The notes beneath the pieces are model-generated. The model made no database searches. It saw nothing but the letters and a program-made list of their open reading frames with translations, and was not told the origin of the DNA. The translations under genes were made by a program, and so were the position numbers. A stretch of 20,929 bases of DNA. Source: Promethearchaeota archaeon. Lineage in GTDB: Archaea; Asgardarchaeota; Thorarchaeia; Thorarchaeales; Thorarchaeaceae. Of this stretch, positions 4,251-17,661 are shown piece by piece. The stretch covers positions 13,685 through 34,613 of the forward strand of contig JALVPN010000031.1 of assembly GCA_027031765.1 (NCBI GenBank). Reading direction: 5' to 3'. The stretch's first letter is position 1. Each line of letters starts with the position of its first letter.

Positions 4251-7200
4251 CTACTGTCTGACCCGACTCCTCGTCAGGCGTGGCCCCAAGATGTCGTGGT
4301 AGAGACGCAGGTACGATGCGTCTGTCGAGACAAGGGCCAGAGGGCGCTCAGACTCAGTGGCACCACCCACCAACACCTCGCGGTCGTCAGCCACTGCCAT
4401 GAGCATGGGAACCCGCACCCACCATATGCGCCACCCCTTCGGGAGCTCCGTGCCCTCCGGGAGCTCTGTGCCCTCCGGCAGCACCAGCACCCTGCGGTGT
4501 CTTGCCTTGACCTTGGCAAGGCGCTTCATGTCGACGAACCCGACATCCGTCACCGAGAGGAGCACCGAGTCAGATGCACGACTTGCCATGTCCATCATGT
4601 GCGCACGGATCTCCTCTCGGCCAGTGATGAACCACGAGTGCTCCGGCGACACGGACTGGAGTAGTTCTACGGCCTCCTGTACCGATGCGAGCGCCGAGGC
4701 CGACTGTTCCACGGACGACGTTGTGGACTCTATCAGCTCTGTGACCTCGTTGGACAGTAGTTCAAGGGCCTCCTTCTGACCCCTAGACCACTCGCGGAAC
4801 ACCCTCTCAATCTTCGCACCGAGCTTGTTTAGTATCTCGTTCCGGCGCTGTCGTTCATCGGCGGTTGCCTCTGTCGTGGCATTGGTCACTGCCGTCACGG
4901 CATCCGACAGCTCGTGACCGGCCTGTACGACGTTCCCACGTAGGTCCTTCATGAGCGCATGCGACCTGTCACTGAAGTCGCTCTTCAGGCCAAGGCCAAT
5001 CGACTCGAACCTCCTAGATGCCGTTTGGTTGCTGGTAAGTGCGGCCTGGAGCGCAGACTCCAGCACGTGGTCGCGCGCCCCGAGGGCCTCCCTGATCCAC
5101 GAGTCTGTGAAAGTGTTGGCCTCCTTCACAGCGGCCTCGAGGGCCGTCTGGTACTCTTCGGCCCGGGCATCGAGCTGTCTCAGCACCTCATTCTTCTCCT
5201 GTCCAGTGCTGATGGAGGCCTCTTCAGCAATAGCAGTGGTGACATCACTTATGGACTGTGTGAGCGTGTCCAGCAGGCCCCGGGCATTGTCAAGGGCATC
5301 GGCACTCGTTGCAGCGAACTTGTCCGCATGGCTGTGGAGGACACCCTGTGCCTGTTGGAACATCTCCTCCGCAATTGACCCGAGGCTCTCTACCTGGGCA
5401 TTGCCCCTCTGCTCCACGCGAGACGCAGCCTCACGAGATGCATCTGTAAGGTACTGACGCATGCCCTCAATGTACTCCCTTATCTTCGTTGCCAGGCCTT
5501 CGAGGTCAGCGGTGAGTTGCGAGGCCGCGTTGTCGACTGCCATGGACACCGCATCGAACGCCATTGAGGCCTCCAGCTTGTGGCCGTCCACCTCTGTAGA
5601 TACTGCCTCTCTGGCTGAAGCACGCGCTTTCACGCCAGAGGTCTCGCTCTTCACAAGGGAGGCATGGTACGACTCGACAAGTGCTGCTGCGCTCTTGGCC
5701 ATGTCCGACGCAATCTTGTCGAGGGCCTTGCTCACACTGGTGACGGTCCGCTTGCCGGCATCACTCTCTTCAGATGTTAGGCGCTCGACCTCCGACTCTG
5801 TTGCAGACAGCGTCGCTTGGAGAGAGGTATGGAGCGCATCCCGGGTGCCCTGGAGGCGGCCAGTGACGTTGTCCCGGGCGCTCTTCACCGATGCCTCAAA
5901 CTCCCTTGACATCTGCACCATGCTGTCCCCGAGTTGCTGCACGGTACCGCTCTCGACCTCACGCAGGGCCTCCTCAGTGCCCCGTATCGCACCCTCCACC
6001 TGCTGGAGCACCCTGGCCATGGCCTCCGACATCTCATGGCGTTTCTCTGCCGTGAAGCTCTCAAGCGCCTCCTTTACTGCCCGCAGTGACCTTGTGGCCT
6101 CGTCAATCCGCTGCGCGACGAAGGACTTGAACTCAGTCCTCATCTTGGCCGAGTCCTCGCCGAGTGACGCGAGCTCGTTCTTGAGTGCGTTCTTGAACTC
6201 TGCGTGTGCCGTTGCAATGAGCTCATGTGCCTCGATGGTCTGGCTTGCGATGAGGCCGTTGAAAGTGGCCTCCATGCTCTGGGTCAGGTTGATGAACTGG
6301 CGGGTGATGTCCTCAAGGCGCATGTGGAACTCCTCACGGATGCCCCGGGCCTGCTCCTCAATGCTGGCCACCTGCTCGGAGATGTTCTGTTCCACCCGCT
6401 CCTCCATGCCCTCTGCCAGAGAGTTCAGACGGCCAATGCTGGAGGCCACCCGCTCGTCGAAACGCTTGCTCACGCTCTCATATATTGTCCGGGCCTCGTC
6501 CAAGTGCTTCTCAGCAGCAGTGTCGAGCTCCGAGAGGACCTCATTCAGACGGGCCCCCACACTTGACTCGAAGTCGTGTAGCGACTGTTTCATACCAGTG
6601 ATTGCGGTCTCGTGGCGTGTTGTGGTCGACACCAGTACGTTGCTGAATGCCGATTTGAGGCGGCTGCTCATGTTCTCCGCCAAGTTCACGAACTCTGTGG
6701 CCTCAGTGTCCAAGATTGATGCTATGTCTTCAAGAGCAGCCCTGAACCTGTCGTCGAGCATGGTAGTGGTCTGTTCGGCCCACTCGTCGAGCTGACCCTT
6801 GATGTTGTTCCCCGTCCCCTCTACGCGCCTCAGTGTAGACTTCATGTGTCGTCCGACCAGTCGTATGATGTCGCCCTTTGCCTCACCAAGTCGGGACTCA
6901 AAGTCTGTGGCTATGCTTGAGGACATCGTGCGGAGGGCACCATATTCCCGTGCGAGTTCAGAGTTCACCTTGTCGAGGAACCCGGTCAGGCTGTTCCGTA
7001 CGGCTTGGATGTAGGCGTTGTCAATCGACGCGACCTGGTCCAGGTGGGTCATGACGGAGCGTCGCCCCGACTCGACCGCATTCTTGGCGTCCTGCGACCA
7101 GGTGGCAATGTCAGCGTCGGCAGCTGCGACCTTTTCGGCAGCCTGCTGCACTGATACCATGACAAACTCCCTCAGGGCCGCGACCTCCTCACGGCCACGT

Positions 7201-9273: not shown

Positions 9274-10386
9274 TCAGCTGTTCCGGGCCATCTCCTTAAG
9301 CTTTGCACCCCACGTACGGATCTCCTTGCTGAGCCGTGCTATGTCGTTCTCGTTCAGCGTGGCCGTGGGCGGGTAGGACTTGAGTTCGCGGGCACGCTTT
9401 CCGAACTGGAACAGGACAGGGGTGTGGCCCTTTATCATTGTGGTGATCTGATCCCTGACACGCTCGAGTGCCGCGGCCATCTCATATGCCTCGGTGTGTG
9501 GAGTGACCATCTCAAGGAGGTAGTCCATAAGGCCATCAATCGTGGTCGGCAGTGGCTCGTCCGGAGCCACAGGATGACGGGCGGTGGTGACTGGGGCCTC
9601 GTCAGTGGTAGTGACCACCGGCGTAGACTCACGGACAGGCTGCACGGACTGTGCCACCTCCCTGACGAGTAACAGTGCCTCTGCAACCTCTTCAAGGGCC
9701 TTGTTGTACTTTCTCTCGATATCGTCCAGTTGCCGCACTATTATGCTCACAATCTCGCGGGTCTCGTTGAGGGACTCGCCGAGCTCGCTGACGTTGTCAC
9801 TGATCTGTGACACACTGGCGACGTACTCTTCAAGCGAGTCAATCTTCTTTGTCATCGTCTCGACATAGGGTGGGTCACGTAGGCCATCCACGACGCTGGC
9901 CACCGAGCTTACGGAGGCGAGCGTGTCGTCCATCTTCTTCAGGAGGACTTCAGTACCCATTGACTGCTGGATGTCGGCCAGCTGTTCTGCAAGTGCCTTC
10001 ACAGACGAGTGGGTCGACTCGATGCCCTCCCTCACAGCCTTGCCCGAGTTGCCAATCTTGTTCAGTGACGCGCCAATGCCCTGGAGCTTGCTATCAATGC
10101 CGTCCACTTTCTTCGATATTGCTGCTGTAGTCTTGGCGCTCGGCACCTTCTTCAGCGCATCATTCACAGCCTTCAGAGAGGACTCGATACCCTCAAGCCT
10201 CTCGACAGGTGCTATGGAACGCCCAATCTCTGCCACCGCAGACTCCAGAGAGCCGAGCCGCTCTTCAATTGCTGGCACCGCGGCCAGGACCTTGATGACC
10301 CCACGTATTGCTGCAATCTCCTGTGCAACCCTGTCAATCTTGTCCATTAGGCCAGCAATATCTGGTGAGTCAGGACTTTCAGACAT
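9274..10386 (-). CDS. Segmented coiled-coil protein with Thr/Pro linker and ~90-aa C-terminal helical domain, 370 aa
   Basis: Heptad runs such as I90-V94-I97-L101-I104-L108-I111; linker ~250-280; GGTAGGAG upstream of the ATG. Confidence 0.85.
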   Translation of the reverse strand: MSESPDSPDIAGLMDKIDRVAQEIAAIRGVIKVLAAVPAIEERLGSLESAVAEIGRSIAPVERLEGIESSLKAVNDALKKVPSAKTTAAISKKVDGIDSKLQGIGASLNKIGNSGKAVREGIESTHSSVKALAEQLADIQQSMGTEVLLKKMDDTLASVSSVASVVDGLRDPPYVETMTKKIDSLEEYVASVSQISDNVSELGESLNETREIVSIIVRQLDDIERKYNKALEEVAEALLLVREVAQSVQPVRESTPVVTTTDEAPVTTARHPVAPDEPLPTTIDGLMDYLLEMVTPHTEAYEMAAALERVRDQITTMIKGHTPVLFQFGKRARELKSYPPTATLNENDIARLSKEIRTWGAKLKEMARNS

Positions 10387-10525: not shown

Positions 10526-11350
10526 TCATAGCCTGCTGGCACGGACGACCTCGATGCCGAGCGACTCCAGCAGTGAGAAGAGGCGGGCCTTCTGCGGGGC
10601 GTTCGTCCCCTTCCAGTCAATGACTGCAAGGTCGACCTGTTCAGCAGCCCTAGTGACCATCTGCCGCACCAGCGACTCGTCCAGCCCCTCAATGACGTAT
10701 TTCGGGGCGATGTGACCGACCACAACATCACTCTCCAGTACCACCCGGTTGAACTTTGAGGCGTAGTGTGGACCACCAAAGCCAATGGCTGCAGTCCGTC
10801 CAACCTTGGCCCGGGCACACTCCATCACCGCTGCGGCCACAGCCTGTGCCCCCTTGATGTCCCGCCAGTGTGCCTCATCGCTGCCGAGCTCTACGAACAA
10901 GAGGGGGGTGTCCATCGAGGTCGGGCCATGGTGTGTGACCTCAAGGGTCACATCAAATGCGTCAAGTGACAGGGCATCACGCTGTTCGTGTAGGGTCTGT
11001 AGGGCCACCGCCACCAGGCTGGCGACAGAACAGGACACCTCACGTGGGTTGCCGCCGTACTCTGCATCGGAGGTGAGGTTGCCCGTACTGTGTACAAGTA
11101 GGGCCGGACGACCGGACTCTGACCGGTGACGAGAGCAGAAGATGAAGACATCAGGGTGAAAGTGTTCCTCAAGATGACCTGCAAAAATGAGGTCCCTCTC
11201 AGTAGTTATCAGCAGTGTCCCCCTGTCGCACGAGTACACAGGGCTGCCCTCGAAGTGTTCGCCGGTCTCCTCGAAACCATGCTCGTGGATGAGGACGTCC
11301 TTGATTGTCTGGCTGGCCAGGTCACGTTGCGATGTGACCAGCACCCTCAC
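10526..11350 (-). CDS. dtdA: Archaeal D-aminoacyl-tRNA deacylase (DtdA/GEK1 family)
   Basis: FCSRHRSESGRPALLVHSTGN, EVTHHGPT, FVELGS and FGGPHYA motifs. GTG start overlaps the upstream stop. Confidence 0.92.
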   Translation of the reverse strand: MRVLVTSQRDLASQTIKDVLIHEHGFEETGEHFEGSPVYSCDRGTLLITTERDLIFAGHLEEHFHPDVFIFCSRHRSESGRPALLVHSTGNLTSDAEYGGNPREVSCSVASLVAVALQTLHEQRDALSLDAFDVTLEVTHHGPTSMDTPLLFVELGSDEAHWRDIKGAQAVAAAVMECARAKVGRTAAIGFGGPHYASKFNRVVLESDVVVGHIAPKYVIEGLDESLVRQMVTRAAEQVDLAVIDWKGTNAPQKARLFSLLESLGIEVVRASRL

Positions 11351-12597
11351 ACGGCCTCACCCCGTTCAGCTTCGCACAGTTCCAGCAGCGGCTCGAGCCG
11401 GGCATCCACCTTCAACCTGACCTTCTCGCCAAAGGCATCGAGGATTTCGGACTCAATCCTGGTGCGGTACTCCTCGATGCGTTCCAGCTGACGCTTGATC
11501 TCGTCGCGTATCCGCAGGAGGTCGTTCGTATGGTACTCGAGGTTCTTGCGTGCCTCCTCAAGGGCCTCTTGCAGACGGCGGTTCTCTGCATAGACATCTG
11601 AACCGGCGAACCTGCGGCGTCGTTCCTCAATGGACTTTGCCTGGACCTGGAGCTCCCGCAGTGAGCCACGCGATATTGCTTCGATTTCCTCGATGGCCCG
11701 TCGGGCAAGGCGGTCCTTCAGTGGGAGACGTCCCTGCTCGATTGCGGTACGCAGCGCGCTAAGGCCCTCGACCAGACCCGGATGCCCATCCGGCTCGTTG
11801 ACAATTGCGGTGTACGGGTCCTCGAAGTAGTCAGTGAGAGCCCTCAGACCCTCTGGCGGCACGCGGACACCATGGTCGTGCTGGAGGAACTTCTTCACCT
11901 GTTTCTTCAGCGGGTTGAGCTTCATACGCAGGACCGCAGCCAAGTGGTCAGCCTCCTGGTCAAGGTTCAGCAGCTCGGCCACGTTGGACTCGCGGGTGAA
12001 CTCGTCGTACGCCTGCTTTGCCAGCTCGTACTCCCTGCGTGCCTGCTCTATCTTCTGGCGCACCTGACGTATCTGCTCCTCAAAGGACTCCCTAGCGCGG
12101 CCCAACTCCCGAAGGGTATCGATACGGGTGCCAATCCTCTCAAGGTCTTTCAGCCAGCTGAACTCGTAGAGGAGCTTTCCAATCCGCTTCATCTCACGTG
12201 CAAGCTCCTTCATGTAGACGTCCAGCTGCTTGATGGTACCCTTGTGGCGCTTGTCCATCCGCCGGATCCAGCGGGCCCCGGCACCCCAGAGCTCCTGGAT
12301 GAACCGCTGCACCTCCTCTTGGAGCATCTCGGTCGACTCGTAGGAGATCTCCTTCGTGACGTAGAAGCTGTTCACAATCTCCTCGATCTTCATGGCAAAG
12401 CGGGCCGCAATGCCAACAGAGTCGGACGAGTCCTCGACATCAGAGTCGCGGAGGCTCTTAGAGACCTCTTGGATGTCTTTCAGTGCACTCTCCACAATCC
12501 GGTAGCTCTTCTCAGCCTGCTTCACAAAGTCCTTGGACCTCTTGGCCAGCTGCTTACGATACCATTTTTCCAACTGCTCAACGGTCAGGGTCGTCAT
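11347..12597 (-). CDS. Charged coiled-coil protein of unknown function, 416 aa
   Basis: E/K/R/Q-rich helical arms (~150-225 and ~310-388) flank a Pro/Gly-containing central segment; no Walker A motif. Confidence 0.85.
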   Translation of the reverse strand: MTTLTVEQLEKWYRKQLAKRSKDFVKQAEKSYRIVESALKDIQEVSKSLRDSDVEDSSDSVGIAARFAMKIEEIVNSFYVTKEISYESTEMLQEEVQRFIQELWGAGARWIRRMDKRHKGTIKQLDVYMKELAREMKRIGKLLYEFSWLKDLERIGTRIDTLRELGRARESFEEQIRQVRQKIEQARREYELAKQAYDEFTRESNVAELLNLDQEADHLAAVLRMKLNPLKKQVKKFLQHDHGVRVPPEGLRALTDYFEDPYTAIVNEPDGHPGLVEGLSALRTAIEQGRLPLKDRLARRAIEEIEAISRGSLRELQVQAKSIEERRRRFAGSDVYAENRRLQEALEEARKNLEYHTNDLLRIRDEIKRQLERIEEYRTRIESEILDAFGEKVRLKVDARLEPLLELCEAERGEAV

Positions 12598-12692
12598 GAG
12601 GAGGCCACACCCAGATTCGATTATCAGCGCTTCGTGCAGCTTATCAACTTTCTCCTTGACGTGCCCCGGTCGTCACCGCAGCCGTAGTGACG

Positions 12693-12702
12693 AGTTTATA
12701 TC
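12693..12702. promoter_or_regulatory. TATA box in a divergent intergenic region (AGTTTATATC)
   Basis: TTTATA on + lies 47 nt before ATG 12747. On - it reads GATATAAACT, identical to the 10-mer upstream of the 15001 gene, so it may serve both directions. Confidence 0.55.
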
Positions 12703-12730
12703 AGGGACTGTCGAGTGAGCACACACCACA

Positions 12731-12736
12731 GAGGTG
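12731..12736 (+). promoter_or_regulatory. Shine-Dalgarno GAGGTG for ATG 12747
   Basis: GAGGTG lies 10 nt before ATG 12747. ATG 12849 has no comparably placed SD. Confidence 0.6.
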
Positions 12737-12746
12737 TGAGACGAAC

Positions 12747-13550
12747 ATGCCAAGAGTCCTGGACACAGGGGGCCGGGCCCCCAGGTTTGACGTGGCCTAC
12801 GACCTCGACTGCGCATCGTGAGGTGTTTCACGGGTCGGGTTCTATATCATGAGGCTCGGACTTGTCGACGAGGCGCGGAAGGAGTGTGTGCTGCTCTCAC
12901 GGCCAGCAGACTACAAGGGAGGCTTCTGGGTGACATACACCGTCAACAACACCAGAGTCGTCTGGGAGTCGATGTCGAAGGACGGGACAAGGCTGGTCTC
13001 ATCAGACAGTCACAGGGGCAGAGTGGATGTCACCCTGGAACACACCCCAGCAGCCCACCCCGGGCCAGTGTTCCGTCAGGAGGTCACGGCCTGGAGCTAT
13101 GACCGACCGGTACTGCTGGCCAGGAGCCGCCTGACAAACATCAGCAGGGACACCGTCCGTGACGTGAAGACGTACTTCCTCATGGACCTGGACCTTGGTG
13201 GCTACGAGTCCTGCCGCGACGACACGGCCACATTCGATACCGTCTCGGCCATGGTCCACCTGAGCGATGAGTGCCCCGTGCATGTCCTCATGGCATCAAG
13301 GCCGCGGGCCAGCCGCTGGGATGTCGGGTCAGCCATCAGGCTTGCAGTCGACCGGGACAGGCCCGACCTCGGGAACAACAGCCAGTACGGGCCGGGCGAC
13401 GTAGCAGCCGCCCTCCAGTGGGACCACGGCGACCTGGGACCAGGGACAACGACAATGGTCGATGTCGCAGTCACCGCAGCCCGGACGTACAGTGGTGCAC
13501 TGAGTGCAGTCGCTGAGGCCTGGGAACTGTCCAGTAGAGAGCTCCGATGA
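12747..13550 (+). CDS. Candidate selenoprotein (267 aa, in-frame UGA at codon 25, C22-A-S-U25), beta-rich domain of unknown function; conservative call is the 233-aa ORF 12849..13550
   Basis: ATG 12747 is in frame with 12849 (102 nt apart). The only interruption is TGA 12819-12821: MPRVLDTGGRAPRFDVAYDLDCAS*GVSRVGFYIMRLG. An SD lies upstream and a SECIS-like hairpin lies at the stop. Confidence 0.65.
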
Positions 13551-13591
13551 TGTCTGTGCGTAAAGCATTGCAGCGCAGACGGAGAAGGGGT
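13541..13591 (+). promoter_or_regulatory. Eukaryote/Asgard-type SECIS-like element overlapping the stop codon
   Basis: AUGAU (13547-51); 8-bp stem GUCUGUGC/GCGCAGAC (13552-59/13573-80, one G-U); apical AAA (13562-64); GGAG (13581-84); weak lower helix GCUCC/GGGGU (13541-45/13587-91). Confidence 0.6.
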
Positions 13592-13906
13592 AGCACCCCC
13601 ATGGGCCCAGAGAGAAGAAGAGCAGCCAGGCATGTGCCGGCTGCTCCCAGCACGCCCACTCTGCATGTCGCAGACACTATCACAGCACAGCGCCGTCCAG
13701 ATGGACGGTGGGTGGACGGGGCTGTCGAGTAGGTCACACTCCCCGCCAGCCGTGGCTGGACTGGCAGTTCACAGCAGTCCTCTATGACGAAGGGCCCCGG
13801 GCCGGGAATGCGGGGTCCCACAGGGGCCGGAGCGACCACTGACGACAGCACTGTGGCGTGATAGGCCTGGTCAGTACGCCATGCCATGTGGGGACTGATA
13901 CTGGTG

Positions 13907-16090: not shown

Positions 16091-16834
16091 ATGCCTCTTT
16101 GGGCGGAGCTGACTCGGATTGGCTTCATACGGGCAGCCGAAGAGACCGAGGTGGCGGTCATGGTGACCGGGGCGGTCGAGGCCCACGGTACCCACATGCC
16201 GCTGGGCACGGACGTGATCTTGCCGACGTACATCACGGAAACGGTTGCCAAGAGGACAAAGGCCCTCGTACTCCCCCCAGTGCCATTCGGGGACAGCTGG
16301 ATATTCGAGCCGTACCAGGGGACGGTGAGCGTACGGCCGGTGACACTCATCGCCTTCTATGCGGACGTCATGGAGTCCGTGTTCAGGCATGGCTTCAGGT
16401 TCATAGTCGTCGTGAACGGGCACGGGGGCAATGTGTCACACCTGAGGGACGCTGCAAAACGGGCGACGGACGGTGGCGACAGGGCAGTTATCATAGTGAA
16501 CTGGTGGCACGACCTAGGCAAGGAGGCCAGGAGGAACGTCATCGAGACCATCGACGGACATGCGGCTGAGGACGAGACGTCAGAGATGTTGTACGTCCGG
16601 CCGGAGCTCGTGGACATGAAGAGCGCTCAGCCCGCAGTGTCAGACTCAAAGTACATAGTGGTGTCGGCGAACTACAGGAGCGAGCTCTACCCGTCGGCTG
16701 TCCACGGTGACCCCAGGCCTGCTACGGCCGAGAAGGGCCGTGCGATAGTGGAGGCTGCAATTGACGAGCTCATAGAACTCATAGAAACGCTCGAGCGTGG
16801 TGAAATCCCAATCGAGATACGACAGGGATACTAG
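16091..16834 (+). CDS. Creatininase/ArfB-family amidohydrolase
   Basis: GAVEAHGTHMPLGTD, VNGHGGN and HAAEDETS metal-binding motifs. GTG 16067 is an alternative start. Confidence 0.9.
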   Translation: MPLWAELTRIGFIRAAEETEVAVMVTGAVEAHGTHMPLGTDVILPTYITETVAKRTKALVLPPVPFGDSWIFEPYQGTVSVRPVTLIAFYADVMESVFRHGFRFIVVVNGHGGNVSHLRDAAKRATDGGDRAVIIVNWWHDLGKEARRNVIETIDGHAAEDETSEMLYVRPELVDMKSAQPAVSDSKYIVVSANYRSELYPSAVHGDPRPATAEKGRAIVEAAIDELIELIETLERGEIPIEIRQGY

Positions 16835-17661
16835 AGGCCCACTTTGAATATGAGCGAGTCGCGCAGAATGCGCTGGAACATCCGGAGCAGGTTCGTGCCC
16901 TGTGTGGCGATGGTCTCGAACACAGGGTGTCCCTGCAAATCCAGCATGTCAATCATGTAGTCCACCGGCAGGGCGTTCGGCAGGTCACGCTTGTTCAGGG
17001 CCACCACCAACGGCATCATTGCCATGCGGTCGGTCCCGAGGGCGATACGCAGCTCCTCGATTGATGCCATGTTCTCAGCCATCTGCTCGGGCGCACTGTC
17101 AGCCATGAAGATTATGCCGTCGACACCACGGAGGACAGCAATGCGGTTGCTGGCGTGTCTGCGCTGTCCGGCCACGGTGAACACATCAAAGACCACCTTG
17201 CTGCTGGCAGTGACAGGCACGAAGTCGAAGAACGTCGTCCGCCCCAGGTCGTCAGAAATCTCTACAATGCGGCCCTTGCCCAGTGAGCGCACGTTCGCGA
17301 AGAGCCACCTCAGGGCAGTGGTCTTGCCTGAGAGAGAGGGGCCGTAGAACACAATCTTGAGGTGGATCCGTCCGAGGGCATCACGTCTGAGAGCACGTCC
17401 AGGCACGACCTCAACTGTACGCTGTGGTGGGACATGCATTGCCGGCGCCACACCCGTGACCTGTACGTTGTCGGGTGTCACAACAAGGCTCTCTGTCGGT
17501 CTTGTAACATAGGATGTCCCTTGGTCAGTAGGCTCGGTGTTGAACGTTTCCACTGTGTCACTCGGCCCTTGCCCGGCAGACGCCTGTGATGGGCCGTGTG
17601 ACTCCTCCGCACGGTCCTTCCCCCGTCTCAGGCGTTCCGCAAGACGTCGCAGTAGAGACAA
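16831..17661 (-). CDS. MglA-like small GTPase with ~95-aa N-terminal extension, 276 aa
   Basis: KIVFYGPSLSGKTT, RTTFFDF, TVAGQ, RGVDGIIFMADS and NKRDL match the MglA family. The stop overlaps the convergent amidohydrolase stop (CTAG 16831-16834). Confidence 0.88.
   Translation of the reverse strand: MSLLRRLAERLRRGKDRAEESHGPSQASAGQGPSDTVETFNTEPTDQGTSYVTRPTESLVVTPDNVQVTGVAPAMHVPPQRTVEVVPGRALRRDALGRIHLKIVFYGPSLSGKTTALRWLFANVRSLGKGRIVEISDDLGRTTFFDFVPVTASSKVVFDVFTVAGQRRHASNRIAVLRGVDGIIFMADSAPEQMAENMASIEELRIALGTDRMAMMPLVVALNKRDLPNALPVDYMIDMLDLQGHPVFETIATQGTNLLRMFQRILRDSLIFKVGL

Follow-up and report, generated by a model that had tools for sequence, protein, structure and literature searches.

A candidate selenoprotein family of Asgard archaea with a eukaryote-like SECIS element built on the stop codon

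The stretch of DNA analysed here (the window) comprises 20,929 nt of the Promethearchaeota archaeon contig JALVPN010000031.1, and all coordinates given without another contig are positions in it. On its forward strand lies a gene of 267 codons with an in-frame TGA near its 5' end, which we argue below most probably encodes a selenoprotein with selenocysteine (Sec, U) at residue 25. The features of the coding part and of the region directly upstream are the following.

12695 to 12700, forward strand: TATA-like box TTTATA, about 47 nt 5' of the start codon, a putative promoter element.
12731 to 12739, forward strand: Shine-Dalgarno-like word GAGGTGTGA, 8 nt 5' of the ATG, containing GAGGTG at 12731-12736.
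12747 to 13550, forward strand: full selenoprotein coding sequence (CDS), 267 codons plus the terminal TGA (13548-13550), delimited by translation and ortholog alignment.
12810 to 12821, forward strand: C22-A-S-U25 motif, with the Sec codon TGA at 12819-12821 (codon 25).
12849 to 13550, forward strand: truncated open reading frame (ORF) of 233 aa starting at M35, the product of standard gene finders.

An earlier annotation of the locus, made from the letters alone (the sequence-only reading), had placed a TTTATA box at 12695, GAGGTG at 12731 and an in-frame ATG at 12747, and every one of these coordinates was verified by reading the sequence. The same holds for the single in-frame TGA (12819-12821) that it described as having protein-like sequence on both sides: this TGA, in the context D-L-D-C-A-S-U-G-V-S-R, is the sole one in the frame, and residues invariant among orthologs flank its column. 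The loss of the motif from the 233-aa product of ORF callers, also claimed there, was borne out both by our own ORF calling and by the public databases, which contain only the truncated product of this gene. A TTTATA or TTTAAA box stands at comparable spacing in most orthologs, and GTGATC-type words (GGTGATC- or AGTGATC-like) lie 3-8 nt 5' of the ortholog ATGs; words like GGTGATC fit the 3' terminus of 16S rRNA in archaea and may serve here in ribosome binding.

While a word-indexed protein search found nothing beyond the gene's own truncated product, relatives emerged from six-frame searches of 40 related genomes and from an exhaustive HMMER search; a profile search covered 400 genomes of the phylum. 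The six-frame search yielded orthologs in 20 of the 24 genomes of the same family, 33-40% identical over residues 1-267 and each with one in-frame TGA. In the profile search, the TGA column proved to be kept in 60 of the 61 full-length Thorarchaeial orthologs (the window copy included), which represent 15 genera. The only full-length Thorarchaeial copy without the stop, from genome G357, reads S-I-E-C-S-S-C-G-Q-G-R, with Cys in the column of the TGA. An alignment of 18 orthologs identifies the N-terminal 34 residues as the best-conserved part of the protein, with the consensus M-S-E-I-L-E-T-G-x-R-x-P-R-L-D-x-x-Y-x-V-E-C-x-S-U-G-x-G-R-x-G-F-Y; as many as 10 of the 28 invariant columns fall within the first 31 residues (T7, G8, P12, R13, D15, Y18, S24, U25, R29 and G31). 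The 233-aa ORF matched solely uncharacterised Asgard protein clusters. All relatives in the databases are annotated as 'hypothetical protein', those with an organism name come from a 'Candidatus Thorarchaeota archaeon' or 'Promethearchaeota archaeon', and every entry looked up is N-terminally truncated. A scan with the single protein gave four records named in this way, in agreement with a source in Thorarchaeia. One database protein (P0012) has 'W' at the Sec column and could be taken for a homolog with Trp, a reading that we rejected because its TGA was translated under code 4; homologs thus have TGA or Cys at codon 25, with no genuine Trp among them.

If UGA25 were a genuine stop, the locus would encode a conserved leader peptide of 24 residues followed by a separate protein made from an internal start, for instance M35, which is what gene callers and public databases present as the product and for which the window genome does offer an ATG at 12849. 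However, the column of M35 is occupied by Lys or Arg in nearly all orthologs, so 12849 is not the real start, and no conserved start codon occurs 3' of the TGA in the aligned orthologs. Residues 26-34 (G-x-G-R-x-G-F-Y) are conserved in frame immediately after the TGA, and the ortholog alignments span residues 1-267 of the full-length product, homology beginning at M1 and not at the Met encoded at 12849. Besides, the stop is replaced by Cys in G357 and in the more distant family f26 discussed below, residues 1-40 are modelled with high confidence as the first hairpin of a beta-sandwich, and both a covarying RNA element and the machinery for Sec decoding are present. Termination at UGA25 is left with a very slim chance. 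An even smaller one, practically negligible, is to be given to a pseudogene or to an assembly or sequencing error that turned TGG or TGC into TGA. The sequence does come from a metagenome-assembled genome in 229 contigs, yet the same TGA occurs in 60 genomes and the protein is strongly conserved on both sides of it. At a depth of about 11, a Logan contig from the probable source run, a metagenome of a hydrothermal vent, agrees with 12600-13700 at every position and so has TGA at 12819-12821, albeit as an assembly of reads from the same sample that is not independent of the reads behind the genome assembly.

The 3' end of the gene carries an element with the hallmarks of a selenocysteine insertion sequence (SECIS), composed of the following parts.

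13520 to 13610, forward strand: outer limits of the element according to its minimum-free-energy fold (z = -2.76).
13547 to 13550, forward strand: AUGA, 5' half of the SECIS kink-turn core; 13548-13550 double as the terminal stop.
13552 to 13580, forward strand: helix II, 13552-13559 pairing with 13573-13580, with a 13-nt apical loop GUAAAGCAUUGCA that includes the invariant AAA.
13582 to 13584, forward strand: GAG, 3' half of the SECIS core; the A and the next G are invariant, the first G is present in 15 of 18 orthologs.
13587 to 13599, forward strand: helix III, small hairpin GGGG-UAGCA-CCCC, directly 3' of the core.

That a SECIS-shaped hairpin starts at the terminal codon, as the sequence-only reading had it, was borne out by the AUGA core at 13547-13550, the AAA loop and the 3' GA; its range of 12747-13591 takes in this core but only a part of the third hairpin, the whole RNA element reaching to about 13610. 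Among the 18 aligned orthologs the UGA is invariant and is preceded by A in at least 90%. All eight base pairs of helix II show compensatory changes, with 89.6% of the cells paired (RNAalifold and pair counts); the covariation score was reached by none of 500 shuffles, and sliding the partners against each other lowers pairing to 35-50%. The 60 of 61 retained TGA codons together with eight compensatory pairs, unmatched in 500 shuffles, are far beyond what chance would give. The apical loop, 10-17 nt long in the orthologs, has the consensus GUAAAGCA..GCA with an invariant AAA, and the unpaired adenines at its 5' side, without any apical ministem, are as in type I eukaryote-like SECIS (eSECIS). 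The element at 13547-13584 as a whole has an AUGA_GA kink-turn core flanked by two helices, in which G13582 and A13583 are placed such that they could form tandem sheared G.A pairs with A13550 and G13549, as in the models of eukaryotic and Lokiarchaeal SECIS (PMC4989117, PMC11227280). Of 28 orthologs, 27 have the helix III hairpin; its stem varies among them, and its loop is of the NNGCA type.

Helix I is tentative, being formed either by CUGGG at 13520-13524 with CCCAG at 13606-13610, or alternatively by CUCC at 13542-13545 with GGAG at 13581-13584. When the last 30 nt of the CDS were paired with the 30 nt following the helix III hairpin in 24 orthologs, cognate duplexes averaged -16.6 kcal/mol against -12.1 kcal/mol for non-cognate ones, a cognate mean that none of 5000 permutations matched. 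Because the end of the CDS pairs better with its own post-hairpin segment than with that of other orthologs, the element looks like a three-helix junction on a kink-turn. In one ortholog (L016) the element is shifted relative to the reading frame and the stop is a TAA within the loop, so that what is conserved is the RNA rather than the stop codon. The Cys-containing G357 copy has a SECIS without the GUAAAGCA loop and its helix I ranks 21st of 24, although this is a single case.

The same layout recurs in two other genes of this genome. The SelD gene (G000:C31:46515-47324; L029), which has an in-frame TGA, ends in an AUGA stop, after which come helix II, the GA and a small hairpin, while the end of its CDS takes part in a closing helix, and a whole-genome pattern scan found the element also at a small VhuU-like ORF (C-Y-D-C-U-L-S-C-G-A-H; G000:C115, about 4768-5120; L088). 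In both, the terminal UGA belongs to the AUGA core of the gene's own SECIS, with a CGCAA loop capping the small hairpin that comes after the 3' GA. A further hairpin with GUGA...AAA...GA and a perfect 8-bp stem (L087, about position 301; G000:C40:31500, minus strand) lies within a helicase-like gene in antisense orientation and was dismissed as a chance match. Mariotti et al. (2016; PMC4989117) described that the AUGA of Lokiarchaeal VhuU.1 serves as its stop codon and proposed a minimal distance for Sec decoding, and Huang et al. (2024; PMC11227280) found the overlap of SECIS and stop to be frequent in Lokiarchaeia. A SECIS sitting on the stop codon, one of the traits noted in the sequence-only reading, is thus real at 13547-13550, but it is an already described feature (PMC4989117) shared with SelD, the VhuU-like gene and Lokiarchaeal VhuU.1, and not special to the 267-residue gene. 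The likeness to the lokiSECIS or type I eSECIS-like elements extends to the AUGA...GA core, the unpaired adenines at the start of the loop, the location at the 3' end of the gene and the distance from the recoded UGA (PMC4989117, PMC11227280), and the GUAAA of the 13552-13580 helix fits the G[U/G]AAA loops reported from Thorarchaeial frhA (PMC11227280). Unlike lokiSECIS, the present element has a conserved NNGCA-loop hairpin that separates the 3' GA from the 3' strand of the lower helix, giving what looks like a three-way junction; the main text of the two papers (PMC4989117, PMC11227280), figures aside, does not mention such a hairpin.

The genome carrying the gene is well equipped for Sec decoding. 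It contains tRNA-Sec (59.8 bits), SepSecS (431 bits), a PSTK-like gene that scores 127 bits (below the NCBIfam cut-off) and adjoins the former two, a match to the SelB model at a contig end (263 bits), and the Sec-containing SelD; all five components for which the genome was checked were found. Among the 86 Thorarchaeial genomes searched, 60 have an intact copy with TGA, and 59 of these also have SepSecS; the exception is G388, with a completeness of 65%. The genomes of Thorarchaeia that lack SepSecS number 14 and comprise, in addition to G388, one with the Cys form (G357), one with an internally deleted copy (G005), two with fragments and nine with no match or a weak one, and these losses are spread across several genera. 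At the level of the phylum the family was found only in lineages that have SepSecS. The deleted copy (L020; G005:C8:19312-21515) consists of residues 1-67 with the TGA, followed in the same frame by a piece matching residues 218-245; as SepSecS was not found in this 93%-complete genome, the copy is likely a pseudogene left after the loss of Sec decoding.

The profile further matched distant homologs (E values 1e-17 to 1e-37) in five other Asgard families: in 123 of the 135 genomes of f9, the largest Loki-type family, 10 of 14 of f26, 3 of 4 of f27, 5 of 5 of f32 and the single one of f25. The selenoprotein family is conserved within Thorarchaeia but is not confined to them. In f9, f25, f27 and f32 a TGA codon immediately precedes the matched ORF at 20 of the 22 loci that were read, and a conserved N-terminal piece lies in frame 5' of it, with the contexts C-S-K-U, C-T-I-U and C-K-W-U, and in f9 mostly L-A-T-U without Cys. 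Members from f26 have no stop and read C-I-E-C, C-V-N-C or C-I-N-C; in a joint alignment with U written as C, all the U residues and the second Cys of f26 share one column. Loss of the Sec machinery was rejected as the cause of the f26 form, SepSecS being present in 13 of the 14 genomes. Loki-type members without Cys22 have a conserved Cys at the extreme C-terminus.

The two loci without the TGA arrangement (L058 and L059, from genus g24 of f9) have no in-frame Sec N-terminus, one having TAA and the other a 12-residue insertion after the TGA, and nevertheless retain the conserved SECIS-like 3' element; this state might have arisen by recent loss or by a frameshift, or it may represent a variant gene structure. 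The 3' untranslated regions of f9 (L045-L061) share AUCC...AUGAUUCAAAUAAAAAA(CC)...UUAUUUGAUGAA followed by a short GC hairpin and GGAUU. This f9 element appears SECIS-like, with the three-helix plan of Thorarchaeia in a different sequence, and varies too little for an analysis of covariation. In four genomes the f32 homolog (C-S-K-U) adjoins SepSecS at a distance of a few hundred bases (G336:C6:677747-680344, G337:C17, G333:C24 and G335:C219).

The interpretation that emerges is that 12747-13550 is one gene encoding a real selenoprotein of 267 residues, with UGA25 read as Sec, as the sequence-only reading proposed; we put its probability at roughly 0.92, based on the TGA/Cys column, the covarying SECIS and the Sec machinery. 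Several points weigh against it. The identity of residue 25 as Sec is a deduction from sequence, genomes of one family are kin so that the co-occurrence counts overstate independence, and writing U as C in the alignments slightly favours columns pairing U with Cys. The helix I of the window copy is weak, ranking a merely average 12th of 24. Rfam returned no SECIS family among its matches at E values up to 10 on 13480-13680, only chance miRNA-like ones, which is a weak negative, as the Rfam models derive from the SECIS of eukaryotes and bacteria. The Thorarchaeial ortholog L016 (EILSU) and most f9 members lack the partner Cys, so a CxxU selenenylsulfide is not a universal mechanism; of the CxxU motif recognised in the sequence-only reading, C22-A-S-U25 stands for the window gene, but its Cys does not hold across the family. 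Finally, the Thorarchaeial neighbourhood, described below, looks like plain synteny of unrelated genes without a functional hint. The first and the Rfam point could also be read in favour of UGA25 being read through with another residue, by near-cognate suppression (Trp, Cys or Arg) or SECIS-independent recoding. Against such read-through, the 3' element with its AUGA/AAA/GA signature matches those at the SelD and VhuU genes of this genome, Thorarchaeial genomes lacking SepSecS have (apart from G388) a Cys, decayed or missing copy, and TGA is otherwise a stop in the genome, including at the terminus of this very gene. Only a slim chance is thus left for non-Sec read-through.

For Sec insertion at UGA25 we envisage the following course. 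Decoding would employ the archaeal/eukaryal-type machinery of tRNA-Sec, PSTK, SepSecS, SelD and a Sec-specific elongation factor, and would be directed from about 726 nt downstream by the SECIS, which is eukaryote-like (Asgard type I) and whose AUGA core includes the terminal UGA of the gene itself. This second UGA would be read as a stop, presumably since it lies inside the SECIS or too close to it, in keeping with a minimal distance of the kind postulated for genes of Lokiarchaea. The element would consist of three helices, namely helix I formed by the last codons of the CDS, helix II with the AAA loop on the kink-turn, and helix III following the 3' GA. In the protein, Sec may act as a redox-active or metal-binding centre, possibly forming a selenenylsulfide with Cys22 in Thorarchaeia, whereas in Loki-type relatives without Cys22 the conserved Cys at the extreme C-terminus could be its partner.

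As for the protein itself, neither Pfam (E up to 1) nor NCBIfam offered a family for the 267 residues. An AlphaFold2 model computed from the 18-ortholog alignment is all-beta, with a mean predicted local distance difference test (pLDDT) score of 90.7 and a predicted template modelling (pTM) score of 0.90, and places residue 25 in the turn between strands 13-22 and 29-40, i.e. in the first beta-hairpin. The model compares best with the N-domains of carbohydrate-active enzymes of glycoside hydrolase families 15 and 94 (GH15 and GH94): Z is 22.7 for the glucodextranase N-domain (1ulv_A 19-258), 22.4 for bacterial glucoamylase (1lf6_A), 21.7 for the N-domain of GH94 cellobiose phosphorylase (2cqs_A) and about 21 for GH94 phosphorylases, while galactose-mutarotase-like proteins give Z of about 16. 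Superpositions on 1ulv, 1lf6 and 2cqs have a root-mean-square deviation (rmsd) of 2.6-2.8 over 226-235 residues, and Foldseek E-values go down to 8e-9. The protein is accordingly predicted to be a stand-alone beta-supersandwich like the GH15/GH94 N-domains, with the same fold across all of its 267 residues in the model. Unlike the GH15/GH94 enzymes, however, it has no catalytic (alpha/alpha)6 barrel, the gene ending at 267 residues, and with identities of 10-13% and no Pfam match it is far from them in sequence; nor do the N-domains have its Sec hairpin turn and its own D-x-D-x-G-G...S-Y-x-D-D and G-P-x-D...L-Q-W motifs. Aldose 1-epimerase (galactose mutarotase) has a conserved catalytic His and Glu, and neither residue is found among those columns of the 18-ortholog alignment that are invariant or nearly so.

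Redox selenoproteins of the CxxU/UxxC kind have Sec three residues from Cys and show replacement of Sec by Cys among homologs. Both traits recur in the present family, but its Sec stands in a beta-hairpin turn of an all-beta protein rather than at a helix N-terminus within a thioredoxin fold, and many members are without the Cys. A Sec-centred redox or metal-binding role seems the most likely one, perhaps with somewhat less than an even chance, and is suggested by the interchange of CxxU and CxxC and by the conserved C-terminal Cys of the Loki-type members that lack Cys22.

The surroundings of the gene are identical in ten Thorarchaeial genera. To one side, on the opposite strand, lie genes for a large protein, a 268-aa protein, a coiled-coil protein, a D-aminoacyl-tRNA deacylase and a 416-aa coiled-coil protein, and to the other side genes for a helix-turn-helix protein, a 162-aa protein and an Mrr-like nuclease. 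A functional link through these conserved neighbours was rejected, since they are unrelated. The two coiled-coil genes flanking that of the deacylase (9274-10386, reverse strand, 370 aa; 11347-12597, reverse strand, 416 aa) encode proteins with 40-67% identity, in an order kept across the ten genera, and have no convincing Pfam family. Further away, 16831-17661 (reverse strand) codes for a protein of 276 aa, in which residues 99-268 form an Arf/Ras-like GTPase domain and the N-terminal 98 have no assignment; around the orthologs of ten other Thorarchaeial genomes, this gene was not found up to a distance of 6 kb. In f9 and f26, a Ras-family GTPase gene lies directly upstream of the selenoprotein-family gene on the same strand, at a distance of 0-250 nt, in all 20 loci sampled (L044-L047 and L049-L064). 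These GTPases are 240-330 aa long (Pfam Ras, 1e-36 to 1e-41), and that of L044 has an N-terminal Roadblock/LC7 domain. The gene pair is absent from Thorarchaeia.

Seven selenoprotein families are on record from Asgard archaea, namely SelD, FrhA/VhuU, HdrA, FrhD/VhuD, Prx-like, AhpF-N-terminal-like and DsbA-like (PMC11227280; 2026 review PMC13188914). The present family occurs in the same organisms and uses the same decoding system and SECIS type, and the Prx-like and DsbA-like proteins likewise have Sec three residues from Cys. In contrast, it has no sequence similarity to any of the seven (Pfam, NCBIfam), and its predicted beta-supersandwich is neither thioredoxin-like nor a NiFe hydrogenase or flavoprotein fold, which agrees with the earlier impression of a beta-rich body unlike the known archaeal selenoproteins. 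The survey by Huang et al. (2024; PMC11227280), which yielded the seven families, covered over 400 Asgard genomes but took only members of known families as queries, and Mariotti et al. (2016; PMC4989117) and Sun et al. (2021) relied on Seblastian or Selenoprofiles, which depend on known relatives; being limited to known families, these surveys could not have found the 267-residue family. The published Asgard surveys explicitly call for a search for new selenoprotein families, and those searched by us, subscription journals and supplementary tables aside, do not report this one. In the genomes sampled it is present in 72 of the 85 of the Thorarchaeial family, next to the high frequency in the largest Loki-type family mentioned above. 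We therefore consider it a slightly better than even bet that the gene represents an Asgard-wide, previously unreported family, among the most widespread selenoproteins of archaea and the first with a beta-supersandwich like that of carbohydrate enzymes, in which Sec or CxxU would support a new redox or metal-dependent function, coupled in the Loki-type members to the upstream Roadblock-Ras GTPase.

Archaeal selenoproteomes are thought to be small and to consist almost wholly of redox enzymes of the methanogenesis type. A broad family without links to hydrogenase or heterodisulfide metabolism would enlarge this picture, and its recognition would allow truncated entries named 'hypothetical protein' to be corrected in the public genomes of Thorarchaeia and Loki-type lineages. 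It would also provide a natural set of Asgard SECIS elements, with about 60 Thorarchaeial variants rich in covariation and one that is decaying after a change of Sec to Cys, which may be used to study how eukaryote-like SECIS elements work without SBP2. Lastly, the pairing with a Roadblock-Ras GTPase in Loki-type genomes would offer a testable lead to the function of the family in the lineage closest to eukaryotes.

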